Shown: positions 26,593 through 42,795 of the stretch, piece by piece
Numbering within the stretch: the first letter of the stretch is position 1
Layout: every line of letters begins with the position of its first letter
DNA from: a virus
Lineage: Duplodnaviria; Heunggongvirae; Uroviricota; Caudoviricetes
Virus record (IMG/VR): IMGVR_UViG_2526164634_000009
Reading direction: 5' to 3' (one strand)
DNA length: 42,795 nt
The notes under the pieces: generated by a model
Told to the model about the DNA's origin: nothing
Database searches by the model: none
What the model saw: only the letters and a program-made list of their open reading frames with translations
Made by a program: the position numbers and the translations under genes

Positions 26593-27145
26593 GCAGAACC
26601 TCCCGACAGGCGCTGGCGAGCAGATCCAGACGGTTAAACCAGCCATTCAGATATTTCCCCTGCGAGGCACTGGATTTGATAATCCCTGCGTAATAGCGGG
26701 AACGACGCAGGAAGCACTGCAACAGCAGCCAGTCAGTATCGGCACGCAGAACGGCTGCGCGTGTGTTTTTACCGACGATGCCATCATCATCAACACCTGC
26801 TGCCGCCTGGAGGATCTGAATCGCGCGTTTAACACCGTGCTGAACGGCAGCATCAAAAACGAATAAGGAAACGCCATCAGGCCATTCGTTACACTTTGCC
26901 GCCAGCCAGTAATCACGCCAGTAGATCTGCGCCGCCTGCTCGCGGGTTAAATCCTTAATGCGGGTATCAGGTTTTCCGTCACCGTTAACATCGGTTTTGC
27001 CATCAATAACGCCGTCGCGACGGTCAGAAATACCGTATTTCGTTTCGCCGCCACGGTCGGCAGGATCATTAACATAGCCACCTTCAACATCAGGGCGTAT
27101 AACGAAATTCAGCGAATGAAGGAATGCAGGGGAAAACTCAGGCAT
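26585..27145 (-). CDS. Glycoside hydrolase family 108-like muramidase with C-terminal peptidoglycan-binding domain
   Basis: N-terminal EGGYVNDPADRGGETKYGI motif characteristic of GH108; strong RBS AGGAGGG; first gene after terminator that follows mor. Confidence 0.65.
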   Translation of the reverse strand: MPEFSPAFLHSLNFVIRPDVEGGYVNDPADRGGETKYGISDRRDGVIDGKTDVNGDGKPDTRIKDLTREQAAQIYWRDYWLAAKCNEWPDGVSLFVFDAAVQHGVKRAIQILQAAAGVDDDGIVGKNTRAAVLRADTDWLLLQCFLRRSRYYAGIIKSSASQGKYLNGWFNRLDLLASACREVLHG

Positions 27146-27204
27146 GTTGCCCTCCTGTCATGAACGTTTTATCGTCACAACAGAATATTGAGGGCGTAAA
27201 AAAA

Positions 27205-27221
27205 GCCGGATTAACCGGCTT
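27205..27221 (-). terminator. Rho-independent terminator after mor (AGCCGG-ATTAA-CCGGCT followed by T7 on the minus strand)
   Basis: 6-bp GC stem plus seven T immediately after the stem on the transcribed strand. Confidence 0.6.
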
Positions 27222-27227
27222 TACTGT

Positions 27228-27617
27228 TTAAAACAAAGGGGGGGAACACTGACGATACTTTATACGCCGCATTCGTCGGATGGCTTTATAGACTGTGTTA
27301 AATGTCACACCATGACGGATTGCCAGTTCGTGAACATTGCGACCGTTGAAATCATTCCAGATACGCAAATCCCGAATAAGCGAATCCAGAACCTGACCGC
27401 GTGGAATGTAGACCTGACCGCCGCCCAGATGCTTACAGATAGCCACAACAATCTCCAGTGAATGGGCCGGGTCAACACCTAACCGGGACAATTCCCCGCG
27501 CAGTAAATCGTTCAGCTCCGCCAGCAGTGCCGGAAAGCGTGACGTATCCTCTGCGGGATTGTCAAGATGTGCCAGGATGGTGTCATCCTGCAAATCACCA
27601 AATAAATCTTCCGTCAT
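27228..27617 (-). CDS. mor: Middle operon regulator Mor
   Basis: 129 aa, same family as C, position after GemA. Confidence 0.85.
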   Translation of the reverse strand: MTEDLFGDLQDDTILAHLDNPAEDTSRFPALLAELNDLLRGELSRLGVDPAHSLEIVVAICKHLGGGQVYIPRGQVLDSLIRDLRIWNDFNGRNVHELAIRHGVTFNTVYKAIRRMRRIKYRQCSPPLF

Positions 27618-28165
27618 TGTGCCATCCTCCGTGTCTTTCTGGCACGGGCATAAGCCGCCGTCATGGCATCATAGCCGCGCAGTTCACGCCCGGACGGACT
27701 GACTGGCAACGGAAGCCCGTGACGGGAAAAGGCTTCACGAATACAGCGGATATGCCACTGCTTGAGAGTTTCGAGAACAATCAACAGGGTGTCGCCATGA
27801 CACCACGCCAGCGTGGAAACACCCTGTCCGCCATTACGTTTCGCCGTCAGGCGCTGAACATATTTATCCAGCGCCACATCACCGCCATCGGTAATAAAAC
27901 CGTCTTCTGCCATCTGCTGCCAGACTTTGTATACCTTCTCGCGGGGCGTGACATGCCCCTTAAAGCGGCGACGTGGATGTTTATTCAGCTTCTTAAAGCC
28001 GCGTTCTTTCATGGCATCGAGCACCTGTTCCAGTTGCGTAACCGTCAGCTCGCGGCAACTGATTTTGCCCGTTTTCTGCATCAGAAAAGCGCGGTAAGTG
28101 TCGTCGTCGAGTTGTAGCTCCCGACGGGCGACATGGATTAATTTAATCAGGGATGTGCGATTCAT
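27614..28165 (-). CDS. gemA: GemA-like regulatory protein
   Basis: 183 aa, GGAGG RBS, precedes mor with 4-nt overlap. Confidence 0.75.
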   Translation of the reverse strand: MNRTSLIKLIHVARRELQLDDDTYRAFLMQKTGKISCRELTVTQLEQVLDAMKERGFKKLNKHPRRRFKGHVTPREKVYKVWQQMAEDGFITDGGDVALDKYVQRLTAKRNGGQGVSTLAWCHGDTLLIVLETLKQWHIRCIREAFSRHGLPLPVSPSGRELRGYDAMTAAYARARKTRRMAQ

Positions 28166-28183
28166 GATCGTACCTCCGGAAAG

Positions 28184-28205
28184 AGGCGGTGCTGCAACAC
28201 CGCCT
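28184..28205. other. Perfect hairpin AGGCGGTG-CTGCAA-CACCGCCT just upstream of gemA RBS
   Basis: 8-bp stem, 6-nt loop. Confidence 0.4.
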
Positions 28206-28234
28206 GAATTTACACATCAATCAGAGAGGATTTT

Positions 28235-28501
28235 ATGGAAAATAATGTACAACCTTATGATGTTGCAGGTTATGCGATTGCATCAGCACTGGTGCGCCTT
28301 CTGGTGAAGAAGGCGATCATCACCGCAGAAGAGGGCCAGGCCATTTTCAGCTCTTCAGCAGAGATTTTAAAAGATGCGCCTGCAATAAGAACAAGCCGCC
28401 GCGAAAACATGCAACTGTCAAAGATCATGGAAGACATTATCAGTTCGTTAGACCCAGATGCTGACGGATCTCAAAAGCCTCAAACACATGAGCGTCAGTA
28501 A
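28235..28501 (+). CDS. Hypothetical 88-aa protein encoded antisense to the early operon
   Basis: ATG preceded by AGAGGA; lies in a 274-bp stretch with no minus-strand ORF of 60 aa or more. Confidence 0.4.
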   Translation: MENNVQPYDVAGYAIASALVRLLVKKAIITAEEGQAIFSSSAEILKDAPAIRTSRRENMQLSKIMEDIISSLDPDADGSQKPQTHERQ

Positions 28502-28742
28502 CAATATCCTGGTCTGATAACCCCAGCCTGCGGCGGATGTACTCCTCGCGGGCTGTTTCATTTTGCAGTGCCACTACTGTTTCCAGACGATTCATTTCGC
28601 GGTTGATAATGTCACGGACTTCTCTGGCGGTGAGATTATGCTTAATACCATATTCAACGATAGCGCGAACACGTTCCAGCATCCCTTTTTCAGCCATGAC
28701 GTTATCAATATTAAGGGGAGTAAATTTATCTTCATTGTTCAT
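28440..28742 (-). CDS. Hypothetical early protein
   Basis: 100-aa ORF in operon context. Confidence 0.5.
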   Translation of the reverse strand: MNNEDKFTPLNIDNVMAEKGMLERVRAIVEYGIKHNLTAREVRDIINREMNRLETVVALQNETAREEYIRRRLGLSDQDIVTDAHVFEAFEIRQHLGLTN

Positions 28743-29062
28743 TTTGCGGCCCTCAGAATAAATTCAGGATAAAATTTCAGACTCATTTGCCGTAACACAT
28801 CCAGTGCAGCAACGGCTGCTGATTTATCGTTGCCATCAGCAATAGCGCGGAGATTTTCAATAATCCAGTGAGGACTCAGTGACTCAGCAATAATGCCAAA
28901 CCGGTACGCCATGACCTCATCAATAGCTTTTTCATGAGACGGCTCATATACAAAATTCACAAAGTCATGCACTTCTTTTTTCGGCAAACCACCGGCAATC
29001 AGCAGGGCGGCAAGCTCTTCTGATTTTGAAAATACACCATTATTCATGTCACTCACCTTCAC
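28739..29062 (-). CDS. Hypothetical early protein
   Basis: 107-aa ORF, 4-nt overlap with neighbour. Confidence 0.5.
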   Translation of the reverse strand: MKVSDMNNGVFSKSEELAALLIAGGLPKKEVHDFVNFVYEPSHEKAIDEVMAYRFGIIAESLSPHWIIENLRAIADGNDKSAAVAALDVLRQMSLKFYPEFILRAAK

Positions 29063-29231
29063 AATTCATGCACGCCGTGTCATCGCCCATATCGCAGTGG
29101 TTACATTTCTGCCCGCCACAATGAGGGCACTCTTTCAGATATTCAGGGGATTCATTACCGCAGGTCGGGCATTCCTGTTTCACCGTGGTAAATTTCCCCA
29201 GCCACGAATACGATGTTTCATTGTTTTCCAT
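29049..29231 (-). CDS. Small zinc-ribbon protein (CPTCG...CPHCG...CNHC...CMNC)
   Basis: 60-aa ORF with four Cys pairs. Confidence 0.45.
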   Translation of the reverse strand: MENNETSYSWLGKFTTVKQECPTCGNESPEYLKECPHCGGQKCNHCDMGDDTACMNCEGE

Positions 29232-29748
29232 TGTTTACCTCCGCCTGTTTTTGCGCCCGGATAAATTCGTCAGAAAGGATTTCAGTCATGCGGCCCTGTG
29301 CGGGAGTCATCCCTGTCATGACGTAAATCACATCACCAACACGGAACCACCGGAGCGGGCCGAATATTGTTGCGCTGAAATCCAGTCCCAGTGCGGGTAA
29401 GAGAGCGTCAGTACGGGCATAAGTGACCGGAATATTCTCCTGCCATATTTTCGCCAGCTCTTTTGACTGCTCCCGCAGATGTGCAGGAATGCGCGATGTT
29501 CTTGGCCTGCAACTGTTACCTGATGCGGAGCGTTGTACAGTCCACAACTCCGGCGAGAAAGGTCGCTCATTCCCCGGAAAATTCACGCCATGAAAATGAC
29601 GCCCACCAATACCTGTGCTGAATACTGACCGGCAACCACAACCCAGAACCTTATCAAGATGGCGGGCTTCTTCGCGTAGTTTCAGGCAGTCCGCCATAAA
29701 CTGGTCCCATGCCAGCAGTGCTGCGGGATTTGACGTTTTAAAAAACAT
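29218..29748 (-). CDS. Hypothetical early protein; start taken at internal ATG 29748 overlapping upstream stop
   Basis: 176 aa from MFFKTSNPAALL... Confidence 0.5.
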   Translation of the reverse strand: MFFKTSNPAALLAWDQFMADCLKLREEARHLDKVLGCGCRSVFSTGIGGRHFHGVNFPGNERPFSPELWTVQRSASGNSCRPRTSRIPAHLREQSKELAKIWQENIPVTYARTDALLPALGLDFSATIFGPLRWFRVGDVIYVMTGMTPAQGRMTEILSDEFIRAQKQAEVNNGKQ

Positions 29749-30278
29749 CACGCCACCTCCTGCACCGCTGCGGGAGCCGGAGAACAATCAAGAATGAGAT
29801 AACGCAGTACATGGTCGGTGATATTCCAGGCGCTGGAACTGCAAATAAAACGCCCCAGCCGGATATCGATATAAGCCATCACAAAACGGGGCATTCCCTG
29901 TTCGCACATTCTGTTATCCACCTCAGCAACAATGTGAACTGACTCACAGGTCAGCACGCCCGTCGCAAACTCTTTTGCCAGCGCGGGGATGGTATTACCT
30001 TCCACCCAGGGTAATGAGCGACGCCAGTTGCACCACACCGCATCATCAACAGCAGGCTGCTCAGTTGCGTTTCGTCTTACAGGCGGCGTCGGACGCGGGC
30101 GCGGAACGTCATAAAATCCGTTGCATTCGGTGAGCACTCCGGCATCAACCGCATCACGCAGGAAATACACCATTGACGAGGGCAGCATATTCATTTTTTC
30201 AGCCAGAACTCCGCAGGTCAGGCGTCCGTAAGCCCGTAATAATGTGCTGACACCATTCAGAATTTTTGCATCAACCAT
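29748..30278 (-). CDS. Hypothetical early protein with possible N-terminal winged-helix
   Basis: 176-aa ORF. Confidence 0.5.
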   Translation of the reverse strand: MVDAKILNGVSTLLRAYGRLTCGVLAEKMNMLPSSMVYFLRDAVDAGVLTECNGFYDVPRPRPTPPVRRNATEQPAVDDAVWCNWRRSLPWVEGNTIPALAKEFATGVLTCESVHIVAEVDNRMCEQGMPRFVMAYIDIRLGRFICSSSAWNITDHVLRYLILDCSPAPAAVQEVA

Positions 30279-30376
30279 GTTTTATTCCTCAGTAATCTGT
30301 TTCAGGCGCGAGCAATCCCCTGACGTATCGCGCCATAATTAAAAGAATGTGAATTAATTAAATATTAATGGTGGTA

Positions 30377-30901
30377 TTAAATACCGGCTTCCTGTTCAAA
30401 TGGAATAATAGAAAAATCCTCAATGCCTGATTTAACTGTAATTCCGGCAACGCCTGCGACCGCTTTCGGTTCCAGTAAAATCGCTTCCTTGTTGATTTCC
30501 TGCTTCGTGCGAATAAAGCGTTGCAGGCCAAGACGCTCCAGCGTTTCCATCACTGCATCCATACCACGAATACTTACTGATGGCGGACGGACCCGCCACG
30601 ATACATCACCGGTGACAAGATTCGCCGTCTTCACTTTGCCGCCGTTCGTCAGTTCGTCGCGGTTCGCTTCACACCATCCCTGAACGCCTTTTGAAAGGGT
30701 TTCAATATCGGTTTTAATCGGTGCAATCCGGGCTGCAAATTTCTCCGTAATTTCCGCGATGGCATCATTCATTTCCGTTTCCAGACGTGATGCTTCGCGC
30801 TGTAAATCCCCGATGCGTTTAATATCGGTAATCACCGCATCGCGGTTTTGTGGCACATAAGCCGCTGCGGCACTTTTGATACGTTTTGCTGGTTTAGCCA
30901 T
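30377..30901 (-). CDS. gam: Host-nuclease inhibitor Gam (Ku-like DNA end-binding protein)
   Basis: 174 aa; matches Mu Gam as I recall it, essentially along its length. Confidence 0.9.
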   Translation of the reverse strand: MAKPAKRIKSAAAAYVPQNRDAVITDIKRIGDLQREASRLETEMNDAIAEITEKFAARIAPIKTDIETLSKGVQGWCEANRDELTNGGKVKTANLVTGDVSWRVRPPSVSIRGMDAVMETLERLGLQRFIRTKQEINKEAILLEPKAVAGVAGITVKSGIEDFSIIPFEQEAGI

Positions 30902-30920
30902 AAATTAAAGCTCCTGTTAA

Positions 30921-31220
30921 TTAATATCCGCTGTATACAATGCTGGATACAGCTCGATTGCTTAATTCCATCTTTCGGGCAATGACATGAATATCCAGTC
31001 CTTCTTTATAAAGTTCACGACATAAATATTTGTCGTGTTCACTGATTCGGTATACACACAATGATATTCCGTGCCTTCTGGCATGTGCCCGGAGGGCGGT
31101 TGTGGCGACTTTCAGTTTTTCCGCCATTTCTTCAATGGTCATTTTCCCGACGTTGGCTTCGATAAATTCCCGGTCTTCGCGTGACCAGCGCTTACGATTA
31201 CACTTCATGTCAGTCACCAT
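30921..31220 (-). CDS. Small putative DNA-binding protein (two HTH-like segments)
   Basis: 99-aa ORF. Confidence 0.45.
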   Translation of the reverse strand: MVTDMKCNRKRWSREDREFIEANVGKMTIEEMAEKLKVATTALRAHARRHGISLCVYRISEHDKYLCRELYKEGLDIHVIARKMELSNRAVSSIVYSGY

Positions 31221-31640
31221 TCAGTACAGCAGAGGCTCGCGCAGTGATGCCGGAATATGCCGCAGCGATAACTGAACCGCTTTCAGGGCAAGCGAGGAAT
31301 AACAGCAGCGCGCCCAGCCTTTTGCCATTAACCGGTAATCGCGCCAGATACGCTGCCACATTTCACGGGCTTCAGGGTCTGATGCGCAGATGTATTCCCG
31401 GTCCATGACGTACTCCCATAAATCCACGTTGAACGCACCGCCAAATGCAATGGCGCGGGATATGCTTTCGCCGCAATAACGTGCACAGATGCTGTAATGG
31501 TCGAAAGCAATCAGGTAAGTCTTTTCACCACAATCATCAACTTTCCGGGCGCAAATAAACTCGCGTAATTCACCACCGTTGTTATTGCGTTCCTGAATTC
31601 GGATTAATGCCTGAATTTCATTTCGGATTTTGACGTTCAT
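31221..31640 (-). CDS. Hypothetical early protein (Cys-rich)
   Basis: 139-aa ORF. Confidence 0.5.
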   Translation of the reverse strand: MNVKIRNEIQALIRIQERNNNGGELREFICARKVDDCGEKTYLIAFDHYSICARYCGESISRAIAFGGAFNVDLWEYVMDREYICASDPEAREMWQRIWRDYRLMAKGWARCCYSSLALKAVQLSLRHIPASLREPLLY

Positions 31641-31660
31641 TGTCAGCGTTCCTTTGCGAA

Positions 31661-31930
31661 TTAATGTTTAACCGCATTCACCGGATGTGGTACTAAATCA
31701 CATTCAGCTTCCATACCCACTTTCTTCATAGTGGTCAGCATCTCATCTTTGGCCTTTTTAATAATTTCAGGAGCCATAGTCAGGACGATATTTGCCAGTA
31801 AATCATGAGGCCCGATATTTTCCGTTGGCGAGATATCTGCAAGACATGCTTTTGCATCCAGAACTTCTCTGCGCCCATTGCAACCGTCACTACTTTCCAG
31901 CCATGTAAACTCAAAGATAACTTTTGCCAT
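31661..31930 (-). CDS. Hypothetical early protein
   Basis: 89-aa ORF. Confidence 0.5.
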   Translation of the reverse strand: MAKVIFEFTWLESSDGCNGRREVLDAKACLADISPTENIGPHDLLANIVLTMAPEIIKKAKDEMLTTMKKVGMEAECDLVPHPVNAVKH

Positions 31931-32168
31931 TTTGCGTCTCCTTATTGATTCTGAATAACTGCGCTGGCTTTTACCTTCGCGCCTTTTACCTGCTTAAAGA
32001 AAACCGCGCTGCACCACGGACAACATGCAAAGGAGTCCCATACTTCATTTTCTGGTGAGCATTGCGTCATAATTTGCTCTTTGCATTTGGGGCAATTAAA
32101 TGCAGTCAGAGCCACATTGTTATTCTGTACCCGTTTAACCCATTCAATATATTTTTCAGCTTTAGTAC

Positions 32169-33225
32169 GGCTTTGTTGAATAAATCAGATTTCGGGTAAG
32201 TCTCCCCCGTAGCGGGTTGTGTTTTCAGGCAATACGCACGCTTTCAGGCATACCTGCTTTCGTCATTTTGTTCAGCGCTCGTACCAGGGCCATAGCCTCT
32301 GCAACCTGACCATCGTAGTCACGCAGTGTCAGTGAACCTCCGAACAGCTGTTTTACCCGGTACATCGCCGTTTCCGCTATCGAGCGACGGTTGTAATCTG
32401 TTGTCCATTTCCACCGCGCATTACTCCCGGTCATTCGCTGATTAGCCACTGCACGGTTACGGTCTGCATATTCACCGGGCCAGTAACCCGCACCTTTTCG
32501 GGGAGGGATAAGGGCGCTGATTTTCTTACGCCGCAGTTCATCGTGACAGAGCCGGGTGTCGTAAGCGCCGTCTGCCGATGCTGCCCTGATTTTTCTGTGA
32601 GTCTGCCGGATAAGACCCGGGAAGGCTTCTGAGTCCGTTACGTTGTTCAGCGACAGGTCTGCACAGATGATTTCATGTGTGTTGCTGTCAACGGCCAGAT
32701 GCAACTTCCGCCAGATACGACGGCGTTCTTTGCCGTGTTTTTTGACTTTCCATTCGCCTTCACCAAAGACCTTCAGCCCGGTGGAATCAATCACCAGATG
32801 CGCGATTTCACCTCGGGTGAACGTTTTGAAACTGACATTAACCGACTTTGCGCGCTTGCTGACACTGGTGTAATCCGGGCAGCGCAACGGAACATTTATC
32901 AGTGTAAAAATGGAATCAATAAAACCCTGTGCAGCCCGCAGGGTCAGCCTGAACACGCGTTTAATGACCAGAACGGTGGTGATGGCGAGATCAGAATAGC
33001 GCTGAGGTCTTCCCCGTGATGAAGGCGTTGCCGACTCATACCAGGCCTGAATAGCTTCATCATCCAGCCAGAAAGTTATGGAGCCACGGTTGATGAGGGC
33101 TTTATTGTAGGTGGGCCAGTTGGTGATTTTGAACTTTTGCTTTGCCACGGAACGGTCTGCGTTGTCGGGAAGATACGTGATCTGATCCTTCAACTCAGCA
33201 AAAGTTCGATTTATTCAACAAAGCC
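32169..33225 (-). mobile_element. IS903-like element (IS5 family), 1057 bp, 9-bp target duplication CTTTAGTAC at 32160-32168 and 33226-33234
   Basis: Perfect 18-bp terminal inverted repeats GGCTTTGTTGAATAAATC, single transposase ORF, identical 9-bp flanking repeats. Confidence 0.9.
32225..33193 (-). CDS. tnp: IS903-type transposase (DDE); true start may be internal
   Basis: ORF contains FKITNWPTYNKALINRGSITFWLDDEAIQAWY region that I recognise as IS903 transposase. Confidence 0.9.
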   Translation of the reverse strand: MKDQITYLPDNADRSVAKQKFKITNWPTYNKALINRGSITFWLDDEAIQAWYESATPSSRGRPQRYSDLAITTVLVIKRVFRLTLRAAQGFIDSIFTLINVPLRCPDYTSVSKRAKSVNVSFKTFTRGEIAHLVIDSTGLKVFGEGEWKVKKHGKERRRIWRKLHLAVDSNTHEIICADLSLNNVTDSEAFPGLIRQTHRKIRAASADGAYDTRLCHDELRRKKISALIPPRKGAGYWPGEYADRNRAVANQRMTGSNARWKWTTDYNRRSIAETAMYRVKQLFGGSLTLRDYDGQVAEAMALVRALNKMTKAGMPESVRIA

Positions 33226-33240
33226 CTTTAGTACACATCG

Positions 33241-33468
33241 TTATCTCCAGATAATCTGGCAACCATTAAGACGGGCCGTCCATACAGAACGGGCCACCCC
33301 GGACTTATGCTCCATAATTCTGACCGCGTTTTTTACCAGTTCCACCGGTGGGTAAGTGATTTCAAGAATCGGACGCGCCACGCCGAGATATGATTCATTT
33401 ACATGACTCCCGCGCGCCTGTAACCAGTTCTGCGCATCCGTTGCCATTTTTATATTTCGGGCCATCAT
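33241..33468 (-). CDS. Small early protein immediately downstream of B (position of Mu kil)
   Basis: 75-aa ORF; position-based only. Confidence 0.4.
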
Positions 33469-33483
33469 AATTTCTTCTCCTTC

Positions 33484-34422
33484 TTAATTACGCAGCAGCG
33501 TTGAAATATCAACGTCCAGGTCTAATTCACGGAAAGCCTGACGCAGATAATCTTCGTTAACACGCTCACCTTTACCGTGAGCCGTCATGGCGGCAAGGCG
33601 AAGTGAATGATTCAGAATGCGAAGCGCACCTGGTTTCTGCGCAATCTGCTGTAATAACTCCAGTTCTTTTTCACCGTTAATCTGCCAGGCATCCGCAATA
33701 GCTTTTACATCGGCTTTTTTGGTTTTATTAATTGCAGTGCGCTTTGCAATACGGGAAAACAGACGGGCAAATTCAACCGTTCTGTTACCCCCCGTCATAT
33801 TTGAATAAACCCGGTGATTTCCCATCAGCACAAGGCCAATACGGGTTGATTCCTGTAACAGGCGGAGTTCTTCCAGAACCTCGGCACCAAGATGATCAGC
33901 TTCGTCGATGATAACCAGCCCCTGTGTACCTTCAAGGCGACGTCGCAGGGCGCGGGAGAGCGGCCCTTTACGGCGTGGTGCGTCATTCATTCCCAGCTCA
34001 AACGCCAGTTCAGTAAGACATTCCAGAACGCTGGCACAGGATGGCGTAATGGTGATCATCCAGACATTGTTATTGGTGCGGCGATATTCACGGGCCGCTT
34101 CGGTTTTACCCACACCAGGATTGCCACATACAACAGCAATACTTTCAGTCAGGCTGGCAAAACGCATACTTGTCCAGATTTGTTTTACCGTCTGCGTTTC
34201 CACAAAGCGGGGCGGCTCAGGTAGTTCTGCAACTGCATGATATTTTTCCAGCCAGCGTTGCAGAATTTGTGAAACACGCTCGTTATCCCCGTTGTACTTA
34301 TCATTGATAAAACTACTGATAGTTCCGGTAGAAAGCCCGCTCTCAAGAGCAATTTGTTTAAAGGTGGTTTCTTCATTTTCTACAAGCGTGCGCAGTTCTG
34401 CGCGAATATCGGAAATATTCAT
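33484..34422 (-). CDS. B: Transposition ATPase B (MuB-like AAA+)
   Basis: 312 aa, Walker A GNPGVGKT, follows A. Confidence 0.85.
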   Translation of the reverse strand: MNISDIRAELRTLVENEETTFKQIALESGLSTGTISSFINDKYNGDNERVSQILQRWLEKYHAVAELPEPPRFVETQTVKQIWTSMRFASLTESIAVVCGNPGVGKTEAAREYRRTNNNVWMITITPSCASVLECLTELAFELGMNDAPRRKGPLSRALRRRLEGTQGLVIIDEADHLGAEVLEELRLLQESTRIGLVLMGNHRVYSNMTGGNRTVEFARLFSRIAKRTAINKTKKADVKAIADAWQINGEKELELLQQIAQKPGALRILNHSLRLAAMTAHGKGERVNEDYLRQAFRELDLDVDISTLLRN

Positions 34423-34460
34423 CTGAATAACCTCGTAATTAAATTTTGTTTAAACGTTAA

Positions 34461-36554
34461 TTAAATGGCTTTTTTACGTCTGTTCTGTTCCAGAATATCC
34501 AGCGAATGATTCAGATATTCATCACGCTCAGTTTCGTATTCATCATCATGCTCTTCCTCACACCTCAACGGCTGAACGGTCACCACATTACCAACAGGGC
34601 GATAAACATTATCCAGCCAGGGTTCTATCGTTTTTTGTTCAATAACCTGAATACCTTCATCCTCAGCATCACGTATTTTTTCCTCAGCACGCTTGCGCAT
34701 TCCTTTAATACGTTGCTGTTGTTTGTGATATTCAGCCGTAACAGGAAAGGCTGCGCGTTTATTGCCGTTCCATATCGCCTCACAGATAAAGCTACCGTCC
34801 TTACGGCGTACCGTAATTCGCTCGGCATCGTGAATGTCATAGCTGATAAGTACCTTGCGACCATGTTCATCACGTAGCTCTGGCGCGTAGTAAATATTGT
34901 TCAGCCACTGGATTTCGCAGCGTCTTACCGGACGCTCCACCATCGGGCGGAACATGTCACGCAGCTCAATATCACTCAGCCACTCAATTTCAGTGTCTTC
35001 TTCCGCTAAGCGTTTTTTTCTGAACTCTGCCGGGCTGTAATGTTTTCCGTTTGGTTTCATCGGCAATTCAGAATGTGGGCGGTTGTTGTACCACTCCACC
35101 CCCTCACGGATAGCCTCAATCAGTTCTGACCAAGACGGCAGCTCGCGCATTGCGGCTTTCTGACGGGCGCTCAGTGGCTTGTCCTGTTGCAGGGCATTAA
35201 ACGCTGAACGCAGATCACGATTAAGTACTCGCAACGATTCCCGGTCAGCCCCCTTGCCGAAATAGGTGCGATACCTCCTTGCTATACGCATCGGTAACGT
35301 CCGGTTCAGGCGCTCAATAATGCCGCGTCCCTGCGGATTTCCCGCAATACCAGTGGGGTGGTTAATCCCCAGGCGGGGCAGAATCCCGACGATCTCTTTA
35401 TCCAGCATATCTGCCGTTTCACCGGAACCATTATCCGAGTAATACAGGAATGGTTTTCCGTGATTGCGAATGCCGTGTTGTATCGCCCCGGCAACAGCGA
35501 ACACGTTCTCCGCAAGATCAAGACTCCAGCCAACCACAAACCGGGTTCCACCGTCGATCACAAACGTAACTTCCGGTGAAAATGGACGCCCGTGAACCGG
35601 ATGCGCACATTTCAGCTTCATACCGTGACCGTCACCAATCCAGACATAATTCACCGGCATAGCTGTCCAGTCGCGGCGGGTGAATCCTTCAAGCTGACGG
35701 TATTCACTGCCGGTAACGCGCCCTTTTTGTTTCACCACTTCCGGCAGTTTTTTCATGGCATACCGGACAACATCATAGGAAGGCATCACCTCCAGCATGT
35801 ATGGTTCGTCCGCATGGCGACGCTGCCAATCAGCGACAAAATCCTCGTATGCTTCTGACATAGGCCTGCCGTTAGCCTGACGATACTGCGCCAGAAATTC
35901 AGGCAGCCAGCTAATTTCTTCCGGTTTTATTTCGTCGCGCTTTCCTGGTGCCAGTAACAGCAATCGTTCTGCGGCATTCTGTGCTTTGTTAAACGCAGCT
36001 ATCCAACGTTTGAGCGTAATTGCGCTCAGAGTTCGCTCTTTCCCTTTACGGGCATTAGCAGTAATGACCAAAGATTCCAGGCGTTCTTCCAGGTTACCCT
36101 GCGCTAACCGCGACACAATAAAACGTATAGCGCTGGCACAACTGAATCCCGGCTCCTGGCTAATTCGTAGAACTTCACAGACAAGAGCAATACGCGCTTC
36201 TGCAACTTTACGTTGATTTTCCGTAAGCGCATTCAGACGCTCTTCTACCAATTGTGGCGAACCGCGATATGCCTCAACAGGCTGTACAACATTTTGTTTG
36301 CGTTCACGCTTTACAGGAGGCTGGGTAGTTATCTCCTGCGGGGCGGTTGCCATCAGTTGAGCTACATGGCGCTCACGTAACGCCCGTTGTGTAACCGGAG
36401 GGAGGCAGTCGATGCTGTATTCAATGGTTTTTGAACCCGCACGTTTGCGCCTGAAATGCTCAGATGAGGCCAGTTTCCTTATGGAATACCGCACCCCTTG
36501 CGCAGTTCCCGGCATACCCGGTAGCCCTACAAGCTCATTAACTGACACAAACAT
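34461..36554 (-). CDS. A: DDE transposase A (MuA-like)
   Basis: 697 aa; C-terminal tail DDEYETERDEYLNHSLDILEQNRRKKAI matches Mu A as remembered, N-terminal DNA-binding region diverged. Confidence 0.9.
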   Translation of the reverse strand: MFVSVNELVGLPGMPGTAQGVRYSIRKLASSEHFRRKRAGSKTIEYSIDCLPPVTQRALRERHVAQLMATAPQEITTQPPVKRERKQNVVQPVEAYRGSPQLVEERLNALTENQRKVAEARIALVCEVLRISQEPGFSCASAIRFIVSRLAQGNLEERLESLVITANARKGKERTLSAITLKRWIAAFNKAQNAAERLLLLAPGKRDEIKPEEISWLPEFLAQYRQANGRPMSEAYEDFVADWQRRHADEPYMLEVMPSYDVVRYAMKKLPEVVKQKGRVTGSEYRQLEGFTRRDWTAMPVNYVWIGDGHGMKLKCAHPVHGRPFSPEVTFVIDGGTRFVVGWSLDLAENVFAVAGAIQHGIRNHGKPFLYYSDNGSGETADMLDKEIVGILPRLGINHPTGIAGNPQGRGIIERLNRTLPMRIARRYRTYFGKGADRESLRVLNRDLRSAFNALQQDKPLSARQKAAMRELPSWSELIEAIREGVEWYNNRPHSELPMKPNGKHYSPAEFRKKRLAEEDTEIEWLSDIELRDMFRPMVERPVRRCEIQWLNNIYYAPELRDEHGRKVLISYDIHDAERITVRRKDGSFICEAIWNGNKRAAFPVTAEYHKQQQRIKGMRKRAEEKIRDAEDEGIQVIEQKTIEPWLDNVYRPVGNVVTVQPLRCEEEHDDEYETERDEYLNHSLDILEQNRRKKAI

Positions 36555-36556
36555 TT

Positions 36557-36793
36557 TTATGCCACCTTACGAGCGTAACGGCTGGGCCAGATCTCCTCCG
36601 GCGCAACACCAATAGCATCAGCAATAATGCGCTCATATTTTGGGCATTTGCGGTACAGGGCATTCTTTAAAGAATCCTGGTTTAAACCGGCTTCAATGGA
36701 CAGAGAGCGTAAAGTAAAACCTTTTACATGCACCGCCGCGACAACATGCGCGGGGTGCCAGTCCTGTTTAACAACTTCATTTATAGACATCAT
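36557..36793 (-). CDS. ner: Ner-like DNA-binding regulator (start taken at internal ATG 36793)
   Basis: C-terminal IIADAIGVAPEEIWPSRY resembles Ner family; AAGGA RBS before internal ATG. Confidence 0.7.
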   Translation of the reverse strand: MMSINEVVKQDWHPAHVVAAVHVKGFTLRSLSIEAGLNQDSLKNALYRKCPKYERIIADAIGVAPEEIWPSRYARKVA

Positions 36794-36973
36794 TCGTTTA
36801 TCCTTAAAAGTTATCTGTGCGGATAACACCGCCGGATAATCTCTGCGGATAAAGTATTGATCCACATGTGGCGCATGTAAAGCAAAAATTTGATTTTCTT
36901 TTGCCTGATGTGGATCATCTGTGTTTTCTATTGAAATTATCCTTTTGTATCAATTAGATAAGAGGAAAGAAAA
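36794..36973. promoter_or_regulatory. Divergent early/repressor promoter-operator region
   Basis: Three CGGATAA repeats 13 bp apart (36818-36852) and inverted repeat TGATCCACAT / ATGTGGATCA (36858-36867, 36909-36918) between divergent ner and c. Confidence 0.5.
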
Positions 36974-37519
36974 ATGGATAAGCTGAAAGGAAAGTCACTT
37001 TCTTTGCCGGAAGTGACAAAAGAAAGTATCCCGGAGCGTTTGAGAGAATTAATTGGAAAAAGAAGTGTAAGGGCTGCTGCGAAAGATTGGGGGTTGTCTT
37101 TTTCTACTTTAAACAATTACCTGACGCGAGGTACTGAACCTTCACTCAGTGTGGCTCGGCAGATAGCTGCAATTGAAGGGGTTACTATCGAATGGATATG
37201 TGGATCACATGATGATTCATATGAGAATCACCCAATTTCAACTAACACGCATAATGAGAATACAAAACTCATTATGAACATCATTAACGCCTTGGATGCA
37301 AAGGATATTGAGCGACTATCTAAGACTCTTGCCCTCAATGGTGCTAAGTATCTGACTCAAATGTTGGAACCCGAAAATCAAGGCTTACTGCGTCTTGAAG
37401 GACGAAAACGTGTCGCCGCGCTGCTATTAGATGATTTACCTGATGAGCGTATCAGAGAGATTTTGGAAGAAATTGAGAGCAGCAAACTCTCAAGTAGTGT
37501 AAAATCGAGAGCGGGCTAG
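36974..37519 (+). CDS. c: Prophage repressor (c-like, HTH)
   Basis: 181 aa, divergent from ner, HTH-like segment near N-terminus. Confidence 0.7.
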   Translation: MDKLKGKSLSLPEVTKESIPERLRELIGKRSVRAAAKDWGLSFSTLNNYLTRGTEPSLSVARQIAAIEGVTIEWICGSHDDSYENHPISTNTHNENTKLIMNIINALDAKDIERLSKTLALNGAKYLTQMLEPENQGLLRLEGRKRVAALLLDDLPDERIREILEEIESSKLSSSVKSRAG

Positions 37520-37583
37520 TTCAATTAGCCCGCAGTGAACAGATTTTGAAGGCATTTAAAATGCTAAAATTGCAGTAACGCGT

Positions 37584-37745
37584 AGTATCAAATATTTTTT
37601 CGTTTTTAGCTTTCTTTGCGATGGTAGTATCAAATCGCATGTTGTGCGCATAACACTGTTTTATGTCATAACTGTTTGTTTTATCCCATCAAATCCCGTT
37701 TAATCCACTTTCCTCCCGGATTTTTCACCAGTATCAAATAATTTA
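37584..37745. repeat. Mu-like left-end attachment region with three AGTATCAAAT repeats (37584, 37626, 37730), candidate transposase-binding sites
   Basis: Spacing 42 and 104 bp mirrors Mu L3-L2-L1; adjacent tract (revcomp AAAAATCCGGGAGGAAAGTGGATTAAACGGGATTTGATGGGAT) resembles remembered Mu left end. Confidence 0.5.
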
Positions 37746-38077
37746 CCTCTCTATACGACTATGAGGAGAAATTGCTTATTGCCAGATGGGAACTGACAGC
37801 AGAACAGGCTGTTACACAGCAGTTAAAAAATGAGGTGTCAAAAGGAAAACTGATTGACACCGGGTTCTGTATTTTTGCCCTCAGTAAGCTGGCAATGGCG
37901 TTATCCAGTACGCTTGATTCCATCCCTTTATCCATGCAGCGACAGTTTCCTGATTTAACACCGCGCCATCTTGACCATCTGAAAACCATTATTGCGAAGG
38001 GGGCAAATCAGTGTGCGCGGGCAGGGGATAAATTACCGGATTTACTCGATGAATATATCAGAGCAACAACTGAATAA
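37742..38077 (+). pseudogene. nu1: Lambda-like terminase small subunit nu1, 3' fragment only (truncated by Mu-like prophage insertion)
   Basis: Frame opens only at 37742 after in-frame TAA; translated C-terminal part resembles lambda Nu1 C-terminus and overlaps A start as in lambda. Confidence 0.7.
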
Positions 38078-39977
38078 TATGATGGCTGCCGTTTCGGTTG
38101 CGCTGCAGCCTCTGGTCAGGGTTGTACCAATGACGGCAGTTGAATGGGCTGATCAAAATTATTATCTGCCTAAAGAATCTTCATATGGTGAGGGAGAATG
38201 GAAAACGCTGCCATTCCAGATCGCCATTATGAACTGTATGGGTAACGACCAGGTTCGCACGGTTAACCTGATTAAATCTGCCCGTGTTGGCTATACAAAG
38301 ATGTTGCTGGGGGTGGTCGGGTATTTTATTGAGCATAAATCCCGAAACAGTCTGCTTTTTCAGCCCACGGATTCTGCCGCTGAAGATTTTATGAAGTCTC
38401 ACGTGGAGGCGACGATTCGGAACGTGCCATGCCTGAAAGACCTTTCCCCATGGCTGGGTCGTAAACATCGTGACAATACTCTCACGCTGAAACGCTTTTC
38501 ATCGGGCGTCGGTTTCTGGTGCCTGGGCGGCGCTGCCGCCAAAAACTACCGTGAAAAATCCGTGGACGTGGTCTGCTATGACGAACTTTCCTCGTTCGAG
38601 CCGGATGTCGAAAAAGAGGGCTCGCCAACCCTGCTGGGGGATAAGCGTATTGAGGGGTCGGTGTGGCCAAAATCCATTCGCGGCTCGACGCCTAAAATCA
38701 AAGGCACCTGCCAGATCGAAAAAGCCGCTAACGAGTCGGCGCATTTTATGCGTTTTTATGTGCCCTGCCCGCACTGTGGGGAGGAGCAGTATCTGAAATT
38801 TGGCGATGAGTCCACGCCTTTTGGGCTTAAATGGGAGAAGGACAGCCCTGAAAGTGTTTTCTACCTCTGTGAACATCATGGCTGCGTGATCCATCAGTCT
38901 GAGCTTGACCAGAGCAACGGGCGGTGGATCTGTGAAAACACGGGCATGTGGACCCGTGACGGTCTGACGTTTTTCAGCGCCCGGGGTGATGAAATTCCGC
39001 CGCCGCGCTCCATCATGTTCCATATCTGGACGGCGTACAGTCCGTTCACCACCTGGGTACAGATTGTCTATGACTGGCTGGATGCACTGAAAGATCCCAA
39101 CGGCCTGAAAACCTTTGTGAACACCACGCTGGGCGAGACCTGGGAAGAGGCCGTGGGCGAAAAACTCGATCACCAGGTACTGATGGATAAGGTGGTGCGT
39201 TACACGGCGGCGGTGCCTGCCCGGGTGGTTTATCTGACGGCGGGCATTGACTCGCAGCGAAACCGTTTTGAGATGTATGTCTGGGGATGGGCTCCGGGAG
39301 AGGAAGCCTTTCTGGTGGATAAAATCATCATTATGGGGCGTCCTGATGAGGAAGAGACGCTGTTACGTGTGGATGCGGCGATCAACAAAAAATACCGCCA
39401 TGCGGATGGCACCGAAATGACTATTTCCCGTGTCTGCTGGGACACCGGGGGGATCGATGGTGAAATTGTTTATCAGAGATCAAAAAAACACGGTGTTTTC
39501 CGGGTGCTGCCGGTAAAAGGCGCATCTGTCTATGGCAAGCCGGTGATCACCATGCCAAAAACCCGCAATCAGCGGGGCGTGTATCTGTGTGAAGTGGGAA
39601 CGGATACCGCAAAAGAAATTCTCTATGCCCGTATGAAAGCCGATCCCACGCCTGCGGATGAAGCCACGTCGTATGCCATCCGTTTTCCTGATGATCCGGA
39701 GATTTTTTCGCAGACAGAGGCGCAGCAACTGGTGGCGGAAGAGCTGGTGGAGAAGTGGGAAAAAGGAAAGATGCGTCTGCTGTGGGATAACAAAAAGCGG
39801 CGTAACGAAGCGCTGGACTGCCTGGTGTATGCCTACGCGGCATTACGTGTGTCCGTGCAACGCTGGCAGCTTGATCTGGCTGTACTGGCAAAATCCCGGG
39901 AAGAAGAGACGACCCGGCCAACCCTGAAAGAACTGGCAGCGAAGCTGTCCGGAGGAGTGAATGGTTACAGTCGCTGA
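38049..39977 (+). CDS. A: Lambda-like terminase large subunit gpA
   Basis: Start at MNISEQQ (38049); conserved terminase blocks including VGYTKMLLGV, GDKRIEGSVWPKSIRGSTPK, WTAYSPFTTWVQIV. Confidence 0.9.
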   Translation: MNISEQQLNNMMAAVSVALQPLVRVVPMTAVEWADQNYYLPKESSYGEGEWKTLPFQIAIMNCMGNDQVRTVNLIKSARVGYTKMLLGVVGYFIEHKSRNSLLFQPTDSAAEDFMKSHVEATIRNVPCLKDLSPWLGRKHRDNTLTLKRFSSGVGFWCLGGAAAKNYREKSVDVVCYDELSSFEPDVEKEGSPTLLGDKRIEGSVWPKSIRGSTPKIKGTCQIEKAANESAHFMRFYVPCPHCGEEQYLKFGDESTPFGLKWEKDSPESVFYLCEHHGCVIHQSELDQSNGRWICENTGMWTRDGLTFFSARGDEIPPPRSIMFHIWTAYSPFTTWVQIVYDWLDALKDPNGLKTFVNTTLGETWEEAVGEKLDHQVLMDKVVRYTAAVPARVVYLTAGIDSQRNRFEMYVWGWAPGEEAFLVDKIIIMGRPDEEETLLRVDAAINKKYRHADGTEMTISRVCWDTGGIDGEIVYQRSKKHGVFRVLPVKGASVYGKPVITMPKTRNQRGVYLCEVGTDTAKEILYARMKADPTPADEATSYAIRFPDDPEIFSQTEAQQLVAEELVEKWEKGKMRLLWDNKKRRNEALDCLVYAYAALRVSVQRWQLDLAVLAKSREEETTRPTLKELAAKLSGGVNGYSR

Positions 39978-40167
39978 ACTGCAGGCGCTGCGTCAGGCGC
40001 GCCTTGATTTATTAACCGGTAAACGGGTGGTGTCTGTCCAGAAAGATGGTCGCAGAATTGAATATACGGCGGCTTCTCTGGATGAGCTTAACCGGGCGAT
40101 CAATGATGCGGAGTCGGTACTGGGGACAACCCGACGTCGCCGTCGTCCGCTGGGAGTGAGGTTATGA
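39961..40167 (+). CDS. W: Head-tail joining protein gpW
   Basis: 68 aa, between A and B. Confidence 0.8.
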   Translation: MVTVAELQALRQARLDLLTGKRVVSVQKDGRRIEYTAASLDELNRAINDAESVLGTTRRRRRPLGVRL

Positions 40168-41756
40168 AACGAACGCCTGTCCTGATTGATGTGAACGGCG
40201 TTCCGCTTCGTGAGAGTCTCAGCTACAACGGGGGCGGCGCAGGATTTGGCGGGCAAATGGCGGAGTGGTTGCCACCGGCGCAGAGTGTCGATGCGGCCCT
40301 GCTGCCCGCGTTGCGTCTGGGGAATGCCCGGGCAGATGATCTGGTGCGCAATAACGGGATAGCGGCCAATGCGGTGGCCCTGCATAAGGATCATATTGTC
40401 GGGCATATGTTTCTGATCAGCTACCGTCCGAACTGGCGCTGGCTGGAGATGCGGGAGACTGCGGCAAAAAGTTTTGTCGATGAGGTGGAGGCGGCCTGGT
40501 CGGAATACGCCGAAGGGATGTCTGGCGAGATCGACGTGGAAGAGAAACGCACGTTTACGGAATTTATTCGTGAAGGTGTGGGCGTTCATGCGTTTAACGG
40601 CGAAATCTTTGTGCAGCCGGTCTGGGATACGGAGAGCACGCAACTGTTTCGTACGCGTTTTAAAGCCGTGAGTCCGAAACGGGTGGACACGCCAGGACAC
40701 GGTATGGGGAACCGTTTTCTGCGGGCCGGTGTGGAGGTCGATCGATATGGCCGTGCCGTTGCGTACCATATCTGTGAGGATGATTTTCCTCGCTCCGGGA
40801 GTGGACGATGGGAACGGATCCCGCGTGAACTTCCCACCGGGCGTCCGGCCATGCTGCATATTTTCGAGCCGGTGGAGGACGGGCAGACCCGTGGGGCTAA
40901 TCAGTTTTACAGCGTCATGGAACGGCTGAAGATGCTGGATTCCCTGCAGGCAACACAGCTTCAGTCGGCCATTGTGAAAGCCATGTATGCAGCGACGATT
41001 GAAAGTGAACTTGATACCGAAAAGGCCTTTGAATATATCGCCGGCGCGCCACAGGAGCAGAAGGATAATCCGCTTATTAATATTCTGGAGAAGTTCTCCA
41101 GCTGGTATGACACGAATAACGTGACACTGGGCGGTGTCAAAATTCCGCACCTTTTCCCTGGTGATGATCTGAAACTACAGACTGCGCAGGATTCAGACAA
41201 TGGATTTTCTGCGCTTGAACAGGCGCTGCTGCGGTATATCGCCGCCGGTCTTGGCGTTTCCTACGAACAGTTGTCCCGTGATTACTCGAAGGTCAGTTAT
41301 TCAAGTGCCAGGGCCTCTGCCAATGAGTCGTGGCGCTATTTTATGGGGCGGCGAAAATTTATTGCGGCCCGGCTGGCCACGCAGATGTTTTCCTGCTGGC
41401 TGGAAGAGGCACTTCTTCGGGGGATTATCCGTCCGCCACGGGCGCGTTTTGATTTTTATCAGGCGCGATCAGCCTGGTCACGGGCAGAGTGGATTGGTGC
41501 CGGAAGAATGGCCATTGACGGGCTCAAGGAGGTTCAGGAATCGGTGATGCGCATTGAGGCCGGACTGAGCACGTATGAGAAAGAGCTGGCGCTGATGGGC
41601 GAGGATTATCAGGACATTTTCCGCCAGCAGGTCAGGGAATCTGCAGAGCGGCAAAAAGCCGGACTCTCACGTCCGGTGTGGATAGCGCAGGCGTATCAGC
41701 AGCAGATAGCGGAGAGTCGCAGGCCGGAAGAGGAGACAACACCACGTGAGACGTAA
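40164..41756 (+). CDS. B: Lambda-like portal protein gpB
   Basis: 530 aa. Confidence 0.9.
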   Translation: MKRTPVLIDVNGVPLRESLSYNGGGAGFGGQMAEWLPPAQSVDAALLPALRLGNARADDLVRNNGIAANAVALHKDHIVGHMFLISYRPNWRWLEMRETAAKSFVDEVEAAWSEYAEGMSGEIDVEEKRTFTEFIREGVGVHAFNGEIFVQPVWDTESTQLFRTRFKAVSPKRVDTPGHGMGNRFLRAGVEVDRYGRAVAYHICEDDFPRSGSGRWERIPRELPTGRPAMLHIFEPVEDGQTRGANQFYSVMERLKMLDSLQATQLQSAIVKAMYAATIESELDTEKAFEYIAGAPQEQKDNPLINILEKFSSWYDTNNVTLGGVKIPHLFPGDDLKLQTAQDSDNGFSALEQALLRYIAAGLGVSYEQLSRDYSKVSYSSARASANESWRYFMGRRKFIAARLATQMFSCWLEEALLRGIIRPPRARFDFYQARSAWSRAEWIGAGRMAIDGLKEVQESVMRIEAGLSTYEKELALMGEDYQDIFRQQVRESAERQKAGLSRPVWIAQAYQQQIAESRRPEEETTPRET

Positions 41757-42795
41757 TCTTTCACACATTATTGCCGCAGCATTCAATGAACCGCTGCTTC
41801 TGGAGCCCGCCTATGCGCGGGTTTTCTTTTGCGCGCTCGGGCGCGAGATGGGGGCAGCAAGTCTTTCGGTACCACAACAGCAGGTACAGTTTGATGCTCC
41901 CCGGAATGCTGGCTGAAACGGACGAGTACATGGCCGGAGGTAAACGACCGGCCCGTGTTTACAGGGTGGTGAACGGTATTGCTGTACTGCCGGTGACCGG
42001 CACGCTGGTGCACCGGCTGGGGGGTATGCGGCCATTTTCCGGAATGACAGGCTATGACGGTATTGTCGCCTGTCTTCAGCAGGCAATGGCGGATAGCCAG
42101 GTGCGGGGCGTACTGCTGGACATTGACAGTCCGGGCGGGCAGGCCGCCGGCGCGTTTGACTGCGCTGACATGATTTACCGCCTCCGTCAGCAGAAGCCGG
42201 TCTGGGCACTGTGCAATGACACGGCCTGTTCTGCAGCCATGCTGCTGGCGTCGGCCTGCTCCCGACGGCTGGTTACCCAGACATCCCGTATCGGCTCCAT
42301 TGGCGTGATGATGAGCCATGTCAGCTATGCCGGTCATCTGGCGCAGGCCGGTGTGGATATCACGCTGATTTACTCAGGGGCGCACAAGGTGGATGGCAAT
42401 CAGTTTGAAGCCTTACCGGCAGAGGTTCGCCAGGACATGCAGCAGCGCATTGATGCGGCGCGCCGGATGTTTGCCGAAAAAGTGGCCATGTTTACCGGTC
42501 TGTCTGTTGATGCCGTCACGGGAACAGAGGCCGCCGTTTTTGAAGGTCAGTCCGGCATTGATGCCGGGCTGGCGGATGAATTAGTCAATGCGTCGGATGC
42601 CATCAGTGTGATGGCCACGGCGCTGAACAGTAATGTCAGAGGAGGCACTATGCCGCAATTAACTGCAACGGAAGCCGCCGCGCAGGAGAACCAGCGAGTG
42701 ATGGGGATCCTGACATGCCAGGAAGCGAAAGGACGTGAACAGCTTGCCACGATGCTGGCAGGACAACAGGGCATGAGCGTTGAACAGGCCCGGGC
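41746..42795 (+). CDS. C: Lambda-like head protease/scaffold gpC, 3' end outside window; apparent +1 frame change near 41880-41915
   Basis: N-terminal 56 codons (VRRNLSHIIAAAFNEPLLLEPAYARVFFCAL...) stop at TGA 41914-41916; remainder (RVVNGIAVLPVTGTLV... to window end) is in the +1 frame. Confidence 0.6.

Follow-up and report, generated by a model that had tools for sequence, protein, structure and literature searches.

The DNA analyzed here is a stretch of 42,795 nucleotides from a Caudoviricetes record of IMG/VR (IMGVR_UViG_2526164634_000009; hereafter the window), and our subject is a block of small early genes at positions 28440–31930 of the Mu-family transposable prophage that it carries. 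The block consists of eight open reading frames (ORFs) arranged around gam, all on the minus strand, which is that of the early operon. It lies between B/kil and gemA-mor, downstream of the genes for transposase A (34461–36554), B (33484–34422) and kil (33241–33468) and upstream of gemA (27614–28165), which is followed by mor (27228–27617); all five of these genes are also on the minus strand. This is the position of the semi-essential early (SE or SEE) region of Mu, and each ORF of the block is an orthologue of an SE gene of Mu, D108 or SfMu, the gene in the gp7 slot being linked to them via Mu_3F6. By position and by ORF-by-ORF orthology the block is very probably the SE region of a Mu-family prophage, as the initial annotation of this sequence had recognized, with eight real genes for which we propose a host-directed mechanism.

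The close relatives of the block establish the identity of its genes. The approximately 4 kb of DNA between gemA and the insertion sequence (IS) described below are 100% identical to the Yersinia phages vB_YpM_5 and vB_YpM_6, which are already in GenBank. Identity at the DNA level is 96.6% to Mu over 85% of the length and 95.6% to SfMu over 92% of the length, and six of the ORFs are Mu gp8, gp9, gp11, gp12, gp13 and gp14 (95.7–99.4% amino acid identity to annotated Mu records). Position, strand, order and operon layout are the same as those of Mu SE genes 7–14 (E6–E15; AF083977, M64097) and of the corresponding regions of D108, SfMu and vB_YpM_5/6. Unlike Mu, the window holds a D108/Mu_3F6-type allele in the gp7 slot, has an additional SfMu-type orf14 between gp13 and gp14 and carries a gene 6 interrupted by IS903. 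The region is rare among E. coli, with at least 80% of it present in only 25 of 5,426 complete genomes. The suggestion that these genes are undescribed candidates for host interaction therefore needs revising in its first part: they have been named genes of Mu, D108 and SfMu since the 1990s, and none of them is new. They map confidently to Mu early proteins, but to uncharacterised ones rather than to proteins with housekeeping roles. Functions of the SE genes have been termed "largely unknown" (PMC3820752; PMC8705779), and apart from the work on Mu gp7 and on SE deletion cited below we found no further published function for the block genes in the literature.

All eight ORFs are present on the minus strand and amount to more than chance reading frames. 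Together with gam they are tightly packed and translationally coupled, with stop and start codons that overlap or abut and recognizable Shine-Dalgarno (SD) sequences before most of them. No terminator-like site was found on the minus strand between IS903 and position 28415 other than a weak one in gene 6. Every ORF has orthologues in other Mu-family phages. We computed ratios of nonsynonymous to synonymous substitution rates (dN/dS) by the pairwise Nei-Gojobori method against Mu, D108, SfMu, YpM_3, Mu_3F6, Tongde, an E. coli prophage and Salmonella Mu-type elements. The values are 0.05–0.5 for every ORF, which at the level of sequence comparison indicates that all of them are maintained as proteins under purifying selection. 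For comparison, gam, gemA and mor gave 0.03–0.2. The fastest evolving genes are those of the gp7 slot (0.37–0.49), orf14 (0.29–0.47), gp14 (about 0.3) and gene 6 (0.23–0.36).

General searches added little on function. Above threshold, Pfam recognized only Phage_Mu_Gam and Gp11_C in the block, and precomputed matches added Phage_Mu_Gp12 and Kil_protein, families named for the Mu proteins themselves. Each ORF belongs to a PHROGs family, all labelled "unknown function" except those of gam and gp9. NCBIfam, PADLOC, Rfam and PDB sequence and profile searches returned nothing informative on ORFs other than gam. In PDB sequence and profile searches with gp8, gp9, gp11, gp12, orf14 and P0062 (a longer gp13 homologue introduced below) nothing fell below E 0.04, the PADLOC scan for defence systems gave no match beyond two chance-level ones for gp9, and Rfam yielded chance-level matches only over positions 27000–34500. 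No block ORF contains a hydrophobic stretch long enough to be a membrane-spanning segment. The protein families are small and confined to Enterobacteriaceae: gp8 is an ORFan of enterobacterial Mu-type phages, with 24 clusters in 5.8 billion proteins, and gp12 and gp11 form 69 and 224 clusters. Profile searches and structure prediction, the check originally suggested for each ORF, thus returned a domain-level function for Gam only, together with a winged helix in gp11 and a gp12 model without a PDB relative. The claim that Gam alone can be assigned a function stands at this domain level (PF07352) and does not extend to the literature, where Mu gp7 has been published as gnarl2 (PMC12373910).

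At its upstream side the block is bordered by an IS903 of 1057 bp (32169–33225, minus strand). The insertion, already reported in the initial annotation, is real: it has terminal inverted repeats (GGCTTTGTTGAATAAATC...) and is flanked by a 9-bp direct target duplication, CTTTAGTAC, at 32160–32168 and 33226–33234, and its end sequence matches a feature annotated as IS903 in phage P7. Gene 6 (E5) is split after codon 4, with ATG TGT ACT AAA G left on the far side of the element. The remainder (31942–32168, minus strand) holds a 57-amino-acid ORF (31942–32115) whose product matches the C-terminus of SfMu gp6 at 100% identity and residues 20–76 of Mu gp6 at 80.7%. Since vB_YpM_5/6 and E. coli FDAARGOS_1059 have the identical 4 kb or so without an IS, the insertion is recent. 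An element that breaks gene 6 within the early operon, upstream of the block, raises the question of whether the block is silent cargo, in which case polarity would keep expression of the SE genes, and perhaps of mor, low and the prophage might be defective; the recent date of the insertion fits this explanation. We nevertheless regard it as unlikely. The transposase gene of the IS runs in the direction of the early operon and no minus-strand terminator-like site was found within the element, every downstream ORF is intact and has an identical counterpart in a plaque-forming phage, and in Mu a semi-early promoter is annotated upstream of gemA.

The first intact gene of the block (31661–31930, minus strand; SD AAGGAG) encodes an 89-amino-acid protein and lies between gene 6 and gp8, where Mu has gp7/E6; its size also falls within the 40–90 amino acids expected of the Gnarl2 (Mu gp7) family. 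It is a D108-type allele that matches phrog_2230 at 4e-35 and is 98.9% identical to its Mu_3F6 counterpart, 39% to D108 gp7 and 42% to a protein of the E. coli RIVM prophage. At least three diverged alleles occupy this slot, and BLAST finds no similarity between the 89-amino-acid protein and Mu gp7. The comparison matters because Mu gp7 (E6, Mup07; NP_050611.1; NC_000929 4784..5047) is gnarl2 of Silas et al. (PMC12373910 and preprint). In wild E. coli of the ECOR collection, gnarl2 shifts O-antigen bands downward and raises sensitivity to T5 by 10^5–6 (PMC12373910); its target is not known (PMC12373910). Both proteins share the slot, a similar length (87 versus 89 amino acids), the N-terminus MAKVI(F/I)E and a C-terminal His, and they differ in PHROG family (10252 for Mu gp7, 2230 for the window protein). 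A hidden Markov model (HMM) of the gp7 slot, built from six family members, aligned with Mu gp7 from end to end and co-linearly at 7.9 bits, a weak score that 1 of the 300 shuffled sequences attained; leaving out the first eight residues did not change the outcome. The family includes 97-amino-acid proteins beside gam in distant Mu-type elements. Mu gp7 itself matches phrog_2230 at E 0.009, and the window protein has no match to phrog_10252. Taken together, the window protein is probably a distant homologue of Mu gp7/Gnarl2, judging from these profile comparisons. The placement of the 89- and 139-amino-acid proteins in one 90% cluster was discarded as evidence of relatedness, being an artefact of the read-through fusion P0160, a 231-amino-acid read-through of Mu gp7 into gp8 on a short metagenomic contig.

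The 139-amino-acid protein is gp8 (E7; 31221–31640, minus strand; phrog_3690), which is 95.7% identical to Mu gp8 and 100% to that of D108. It evolves slowly (dN/dS 0.05–0.21) and has no Pfam or PDB match. Several ORFs of the block had been described as Cys-rich; in gp8 the Cys residues are mostly not conserved, C52 and C56 being the exceptions. Next in the operon is gp9 (E8; 30921–31220, minus strand), 98.9% identical to Mu gp9. It has 99 amino acids as called, or 95 if translation starts at ATG 31208, which is preceded by a weak SD, whereas ATG 31220 has none. The protein is basic (isoelectric point, pI, 9.3), has a dN/dS of 0.07–0.27 and matches phrog_323 at 6e-29; the title of that family, "transcriptional regulator, D5-like", is an annotation name and not a tested function. 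Bearing on the proposed double helix-turn-helix (HTH) character of gp9 are two separate weak HTH matches, both below threshold, at residues 22–49 and 69–93. The adjoining gam (30377–30901, minus strand) encodes the DNA-end-binding inhibitor of a host nuclease and is 100% identical to Mu Gam (PF07352 at 4e-42). In the 98-nt spacer between gam and gp11 a hairpin can be drawn, with a z of -1.7 that is not significant.

Downstream of gam, gp11 (29748–30278, minus strand; 176 amino acids) is 99.4% identical to Mu gp11 and has three parts: a well-modelled winged helix at residues 1–60, a disordered Pro-rich linker at 61–95 and the Gp11_C domain, which is beta-rich with a predicted local distance difference test (pLDDT) score of 74–91. 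The N-terminus follows the order H1-S1-H2-H3-S2-wing-S3 of the winged-helix fold. Identity to the winged-helix domains of MarR and ArsR regulators and of Zalpha is only 7–22%, and the residues by which Zalpha recognizes Z-DNA (Asn and Tyr of helix 3 and a wing Trp) are out of register in gp11 when the sequences are read side by side. Unlike these domains, gp11 adds the Pro-rich linker and the Mu-specific Gp11_C domain. Its stop codon overlaps the start of gp12 (TGATG).

The gp12 gene (E13; 29218–29748, minus strand) encodes a basic alpha/beta protein of 176 amino acids (pI 9.3; 96% identical to Mu gp12) that was modelled with confidence (pLDDT 89) and has no relative among the solved structures of the PDB. 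A 189-amino-acid TTG ORF at 29218–29787 is a mechanical call, the true gene being the 176-amino-acid gp12 from ATG 29748. A relationship of gp12 to DUF5420 was considered but found no support: an hhalign alignment was co-linear with an E-value of 0.033, but 6 of 200 column shuffles were as good and the reversed profile scored higher. Similarly, the idea that gp12 and DUF5420 exclude each other fails, for both are present together in Salmonella Mu-type elements.

Overlapping gp12 by 14 nt, gp13 (E14; 29049–29231, minus strand) encodes an acidic protein of 60 amino acids (pI 4.5) that resembles a double zinc ribbon and is 96.7% identical to Mu gp13. The four Cys pairs first noted in it are CPTC, CPHC, CNHC and CMNC; they recur in Mu and in fused homologues of 231 amino acids, and as paired CxxC motifs they could accommodate two Zn ions. 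The gp13 orthologues of D108, SfMu and YpM_3 are 95–100% identical. Sub-threshold Pfam matches are to DnaJ_CXXCXGXG, DZR and Zn_Ribbon, and gp13 stays below every Pfam zinc-ribbon cut-off (for example, 19.2 bits against 32.7 for DnaJ_CXXCXGXG and 16.2 against 27.3 for DZR). Some Mu-type prophages encode a longer protein of 231–234 amino acids (P0062, P0069, P0075; L013 6001–6696), in which the gp13 ribbon forms the C-terminal domain. The 231-amino-acid proteins that cluster with gp13 had been taken for gp12-gp13 fusions, which is wrong: their N-terminal domain of 175 amino acids is unrelated to gp12, although it occupies the gp12 slot. Because the ribbon is fused to this alternative gp12-slot domain in the locus L013, the arrangement suggests that gp13 works together with whichever protein fills the gp12 slot.

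The last two genes of the block are variable. A 102-amino-acid ORF (28739–29047, minus strand; phrog_1988) corresponds to SfMu orf14, with 99% identity to SfMu and 80% to the YpM_3 counterpart; a 107-amino-acid call from GTG was set aside, as the start is most likely ATG 29047. It is absent from Mu and D108, in line with the report that neither Mu nor D108 has a homologue of SfMu ORF14 (PMC4406740), and has only 9 representatives among 1.84 billion proteins. Its stop codon overlaps the start of gp14 (ATGA). The acidic gp14 (E15; 28440–28742, minus strand; 100 amino acids) is 99% identical to Mu gp14 and about 36% identical to the allele of D108 and Mu_3F6, and has no family assignment other than phrog_6075. 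The block had been placed between gemA and IS903. It does lie between them, but gemA does not abut it: an 88-amino-acid ORF on the plus strand (28235–28501; phrog_8747 at 1e-60; SD GAGAGGA) intervenes and overlaps the 3' end of gp14. SD-bearing relatives occupy the same site in four diverged prophages (BLAST 1e-8 to 1e-26), among them RIVM, the L013 locus and the Mu_3F6/D108 type, and identity to the RIVM protein is 52% with a dN/dS of 0.36. The interval 28235–28501 is called on the plus strand in SfMu, Tongde, Mu_3F6 and PGAP annotations, whereas the Mu_54 annotated in AF083977 (28270–28437, minus strand) lacks both an SD and a PHROG, and no orthologue of it was detected in RIVM. On these sequence features the 88-amino-acid ORF is more likely than Mu_54 to be the true gene here.

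We then compared the architecture of the region in Mu, D108, SfMu, YpM_3, Tongde, Mu_3F6, the E. coli RIVM prophage, two Salmonella prophages and two metagenomic loci. In enterobacterial Muvirus genomes kil, gp9, gam, gp11, gp13, gemA and mor are constant, although only some of the most diverged loci have a detectable gp9 and gp13. One Salmonella Mu-type locus has a DUF3164 protein in the position of gam (L006 4162–4800). Gene 6 and gp8 are missing from the RIVM prophage. YpM_3, Tongde and RIVM (L005, L011 and L012) have no gp12, which is frameshifted in SfMu (L003 2553–3120) and replaced in L013 by the unrelated 175-amino-acid domain fused in frame to the gp13 ribbon. In SfMu, YpM_3 and the Salmonella prophage Sal1, gam and gp11 are separated by an additional gene, DUF5420; at the same place Tongde and the second Salmonella prophage have an ORF that is not annotated but is similar in size and can be aligned with DUF5420. 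The orf14 gene is present in some genomes only, and the gp7 slot and gp14 are represented by deeply diverged alleles.

This pattern bears on what the genes may do. The ORFs might help Mu's own DNA transactions, with gp9, gp11, gp12 and gp13 acting on Mu DNA or on the hand-over from transpososome to replisome. They would then carry the classical SE phenotypes of amplified replication (arm), immunity control (cim) and ligase-like suppression. The loci arm, cim and lig were mapped to the SE region by classical genetics. In the annotation of AF083977, cim is equated with kil. The ORFs directly follow A and B and stand beside gam in one operon, the winged helix of gp11, the HTH-like segments of gp9 and the basic character of gp12 would suit DNA-binding proteins, and gp11 is retained, as is gp12 in several cases, at 54–65% identity in Salmonella and E. 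coli Mu-type elements beside gam or DUF3164. However, gp8, gp12, orf14 and gene 6 are missing among relatives that are viable, YpM_3 and Tongde, and in the RIVM prophage, and so cannot be core replication factors. Moreover, the sole slot that has been tested experimentally acts on the host surface, and the families are confined to enterobacterial Mu-type elements, while A, B and GemA are common to nearly all transposable phages. We therefore consider this explanation possible but doubtful.

One or more of the ORFs could instead be specific inhibitors of anti-phage defence systems, an activity that the initial annotation had also entertained. Hypervariable slots between conserved genes are a signature of counter-defence accessory genes, and Mup07 was itself chosen in that way; the gp7 slot, orf14 and gp14 are the fastest evolving genes (dN/dS 0.3–0.5), gp13 is small and acidic, and the adjoining gam already blocks a host nuclease. 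On the other hand, none of the ORFs proposed for such a role resembles any characterised protein in Pfam, PHROGs, NCBIfam, PDB or PADLOC, the only tested member hits the O-antigen barrier and not an intracellular defence, and the extreme negative charge of DNA mimics is seen in none but the 60-amino-acid gp13. Nothing that we found points to anti-defence rather than to host takeover, regulation or support of transposition, and we regard it as improbable.

We favor a host-directed role for the SE block. Host interaction, as opposed to novelty, is the part of the original proposal that has gained support, both from gnarl2 (PMC12373910) and from deletion of the SE region in MuBam, after which 100% of the infected cells survived instead of about 20% and the recovery of lysogens rose from about 5% to 100% (PMC3325207). 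The authors ascribed the restored viability to kil or other SE ORFs (PMC3325207). The block occupies the promoter-distal portion of an early operon whose other genes include A, B and kil, ending before gemA and mor, and by analogy with Mu its genes would be dispensable for transposition itself. During the lytic phase its co-translated small cytosolic proteins would bind host proteins or DNA and reshape the cell for the phage. Gam caps DNA ends. For the other proteins we infer the biochemical activities: gp9, with its HTH-like segments, and gp11, with its winged helix, most likely bind nucleic acid and are predicted to be regulators or nucleoid modifiers, and gp13 is predicted to be a zinc-ribbon adaptor cooperating with the gp12-slot protein. 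The fast-evolving slots (gp7 slot, orf14 and gp14) may encode host-specific effectors, and by analogy with Mu gp7 (Gnarl2) the gp7-slot protein would probably disturb the synthesis of O-antigen or lipopolysaccharide (LPS). Mu-like phages of Pseudomonas offer a parallel, as they encode early host-takeover proteins such as Tip of D3112 and Aqs1 of DMS3. Proteins of this type are small, of obscure ancestry and bind host proteins, and their genes lie after those for transposition and before those of the late regulators. Tip and Aqs1 act in other hosts and on other targets, and a sequence relationship to the window ORFs is not expected.

Several points weigh against this interpretation. The lethality that is lost with the SE deletion could come from kil alone, and the O-antigen effect is reported for the Mu gp7 allele only, to which the window allele has no BLAST-level similarity. 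All HTH matches of gp9 in Pfam and NCBIfam are below cut-offs, and BLAST finds no internal repeat in the protein. Neither the C-terminal domain of gp11 nor gp12 has an informative structural match, so that the roles of regulator and adaptor are guesses from fold class and gene order. Finally, IS903 lies upstream in the same operon and may exert polarity on the block and mor.

The prophage surrounding the block shows further features. At its left end it adjoins lambdoid genes for terminase (Nu1/A), portal, S49 peptidase and head-tail joining (approximately 37755–42795), which are 94–99.5% identical to E. coli prophages; the Mu-type phage apparently sits inside another prophage. Its left boundary was set by BLAST, and the Mu end sequences used as queries had no match in the window. 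Positions 36555–37755 are the immunity end (the repressor/ner region, left of A) and gave no megablast match among 50,697 phage records, while the remainder of the prophage is 92–100% identical to known Mu-type phages; the prophage is possibly of a different immunity type. Positions 1–2500 lie inside the tail-fibre and invertible G-segment region and are 92–93% identical to SfMu and to the C segment of P1. As the window starts within this region, the right end of the prophage lies outside it.

For all the attention given to Mu as a paradigm phage, some ten of its early genes have been without a function for 35 years; the region as a whole is toxic to the host. Our comparison separates the constant genes of this region (gp9, gam, gp11 and gp13) from the swappable ones (gene 6, the gp7 slot, gp8, gp12, orf14 and gp14). 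For one slot, in Mu, a remodelling of the O-antigen that alters sensitivity to other phages has recently been demonstrated. Tentatively, and with a rather low probability, the SE region may be seen as an array of exchangeable cassettes of which at least two have unrecognised activities, the candidates being a Gnarl2-type effector in the gp7 slot, a module of gp11, gp12-slot protein and gp13, and a moron. If so, the divergence of the gp7 slot from Mu gp7 would track differing O-antigen or LPS enzymes of the hosts, gp11, the gp12-slot protein and the gp13 ribbon would form one functional module, as the ribbon fusion suggests, and the opposite-strand gene beside gemA could be a "moron" expressed in the lysogen.

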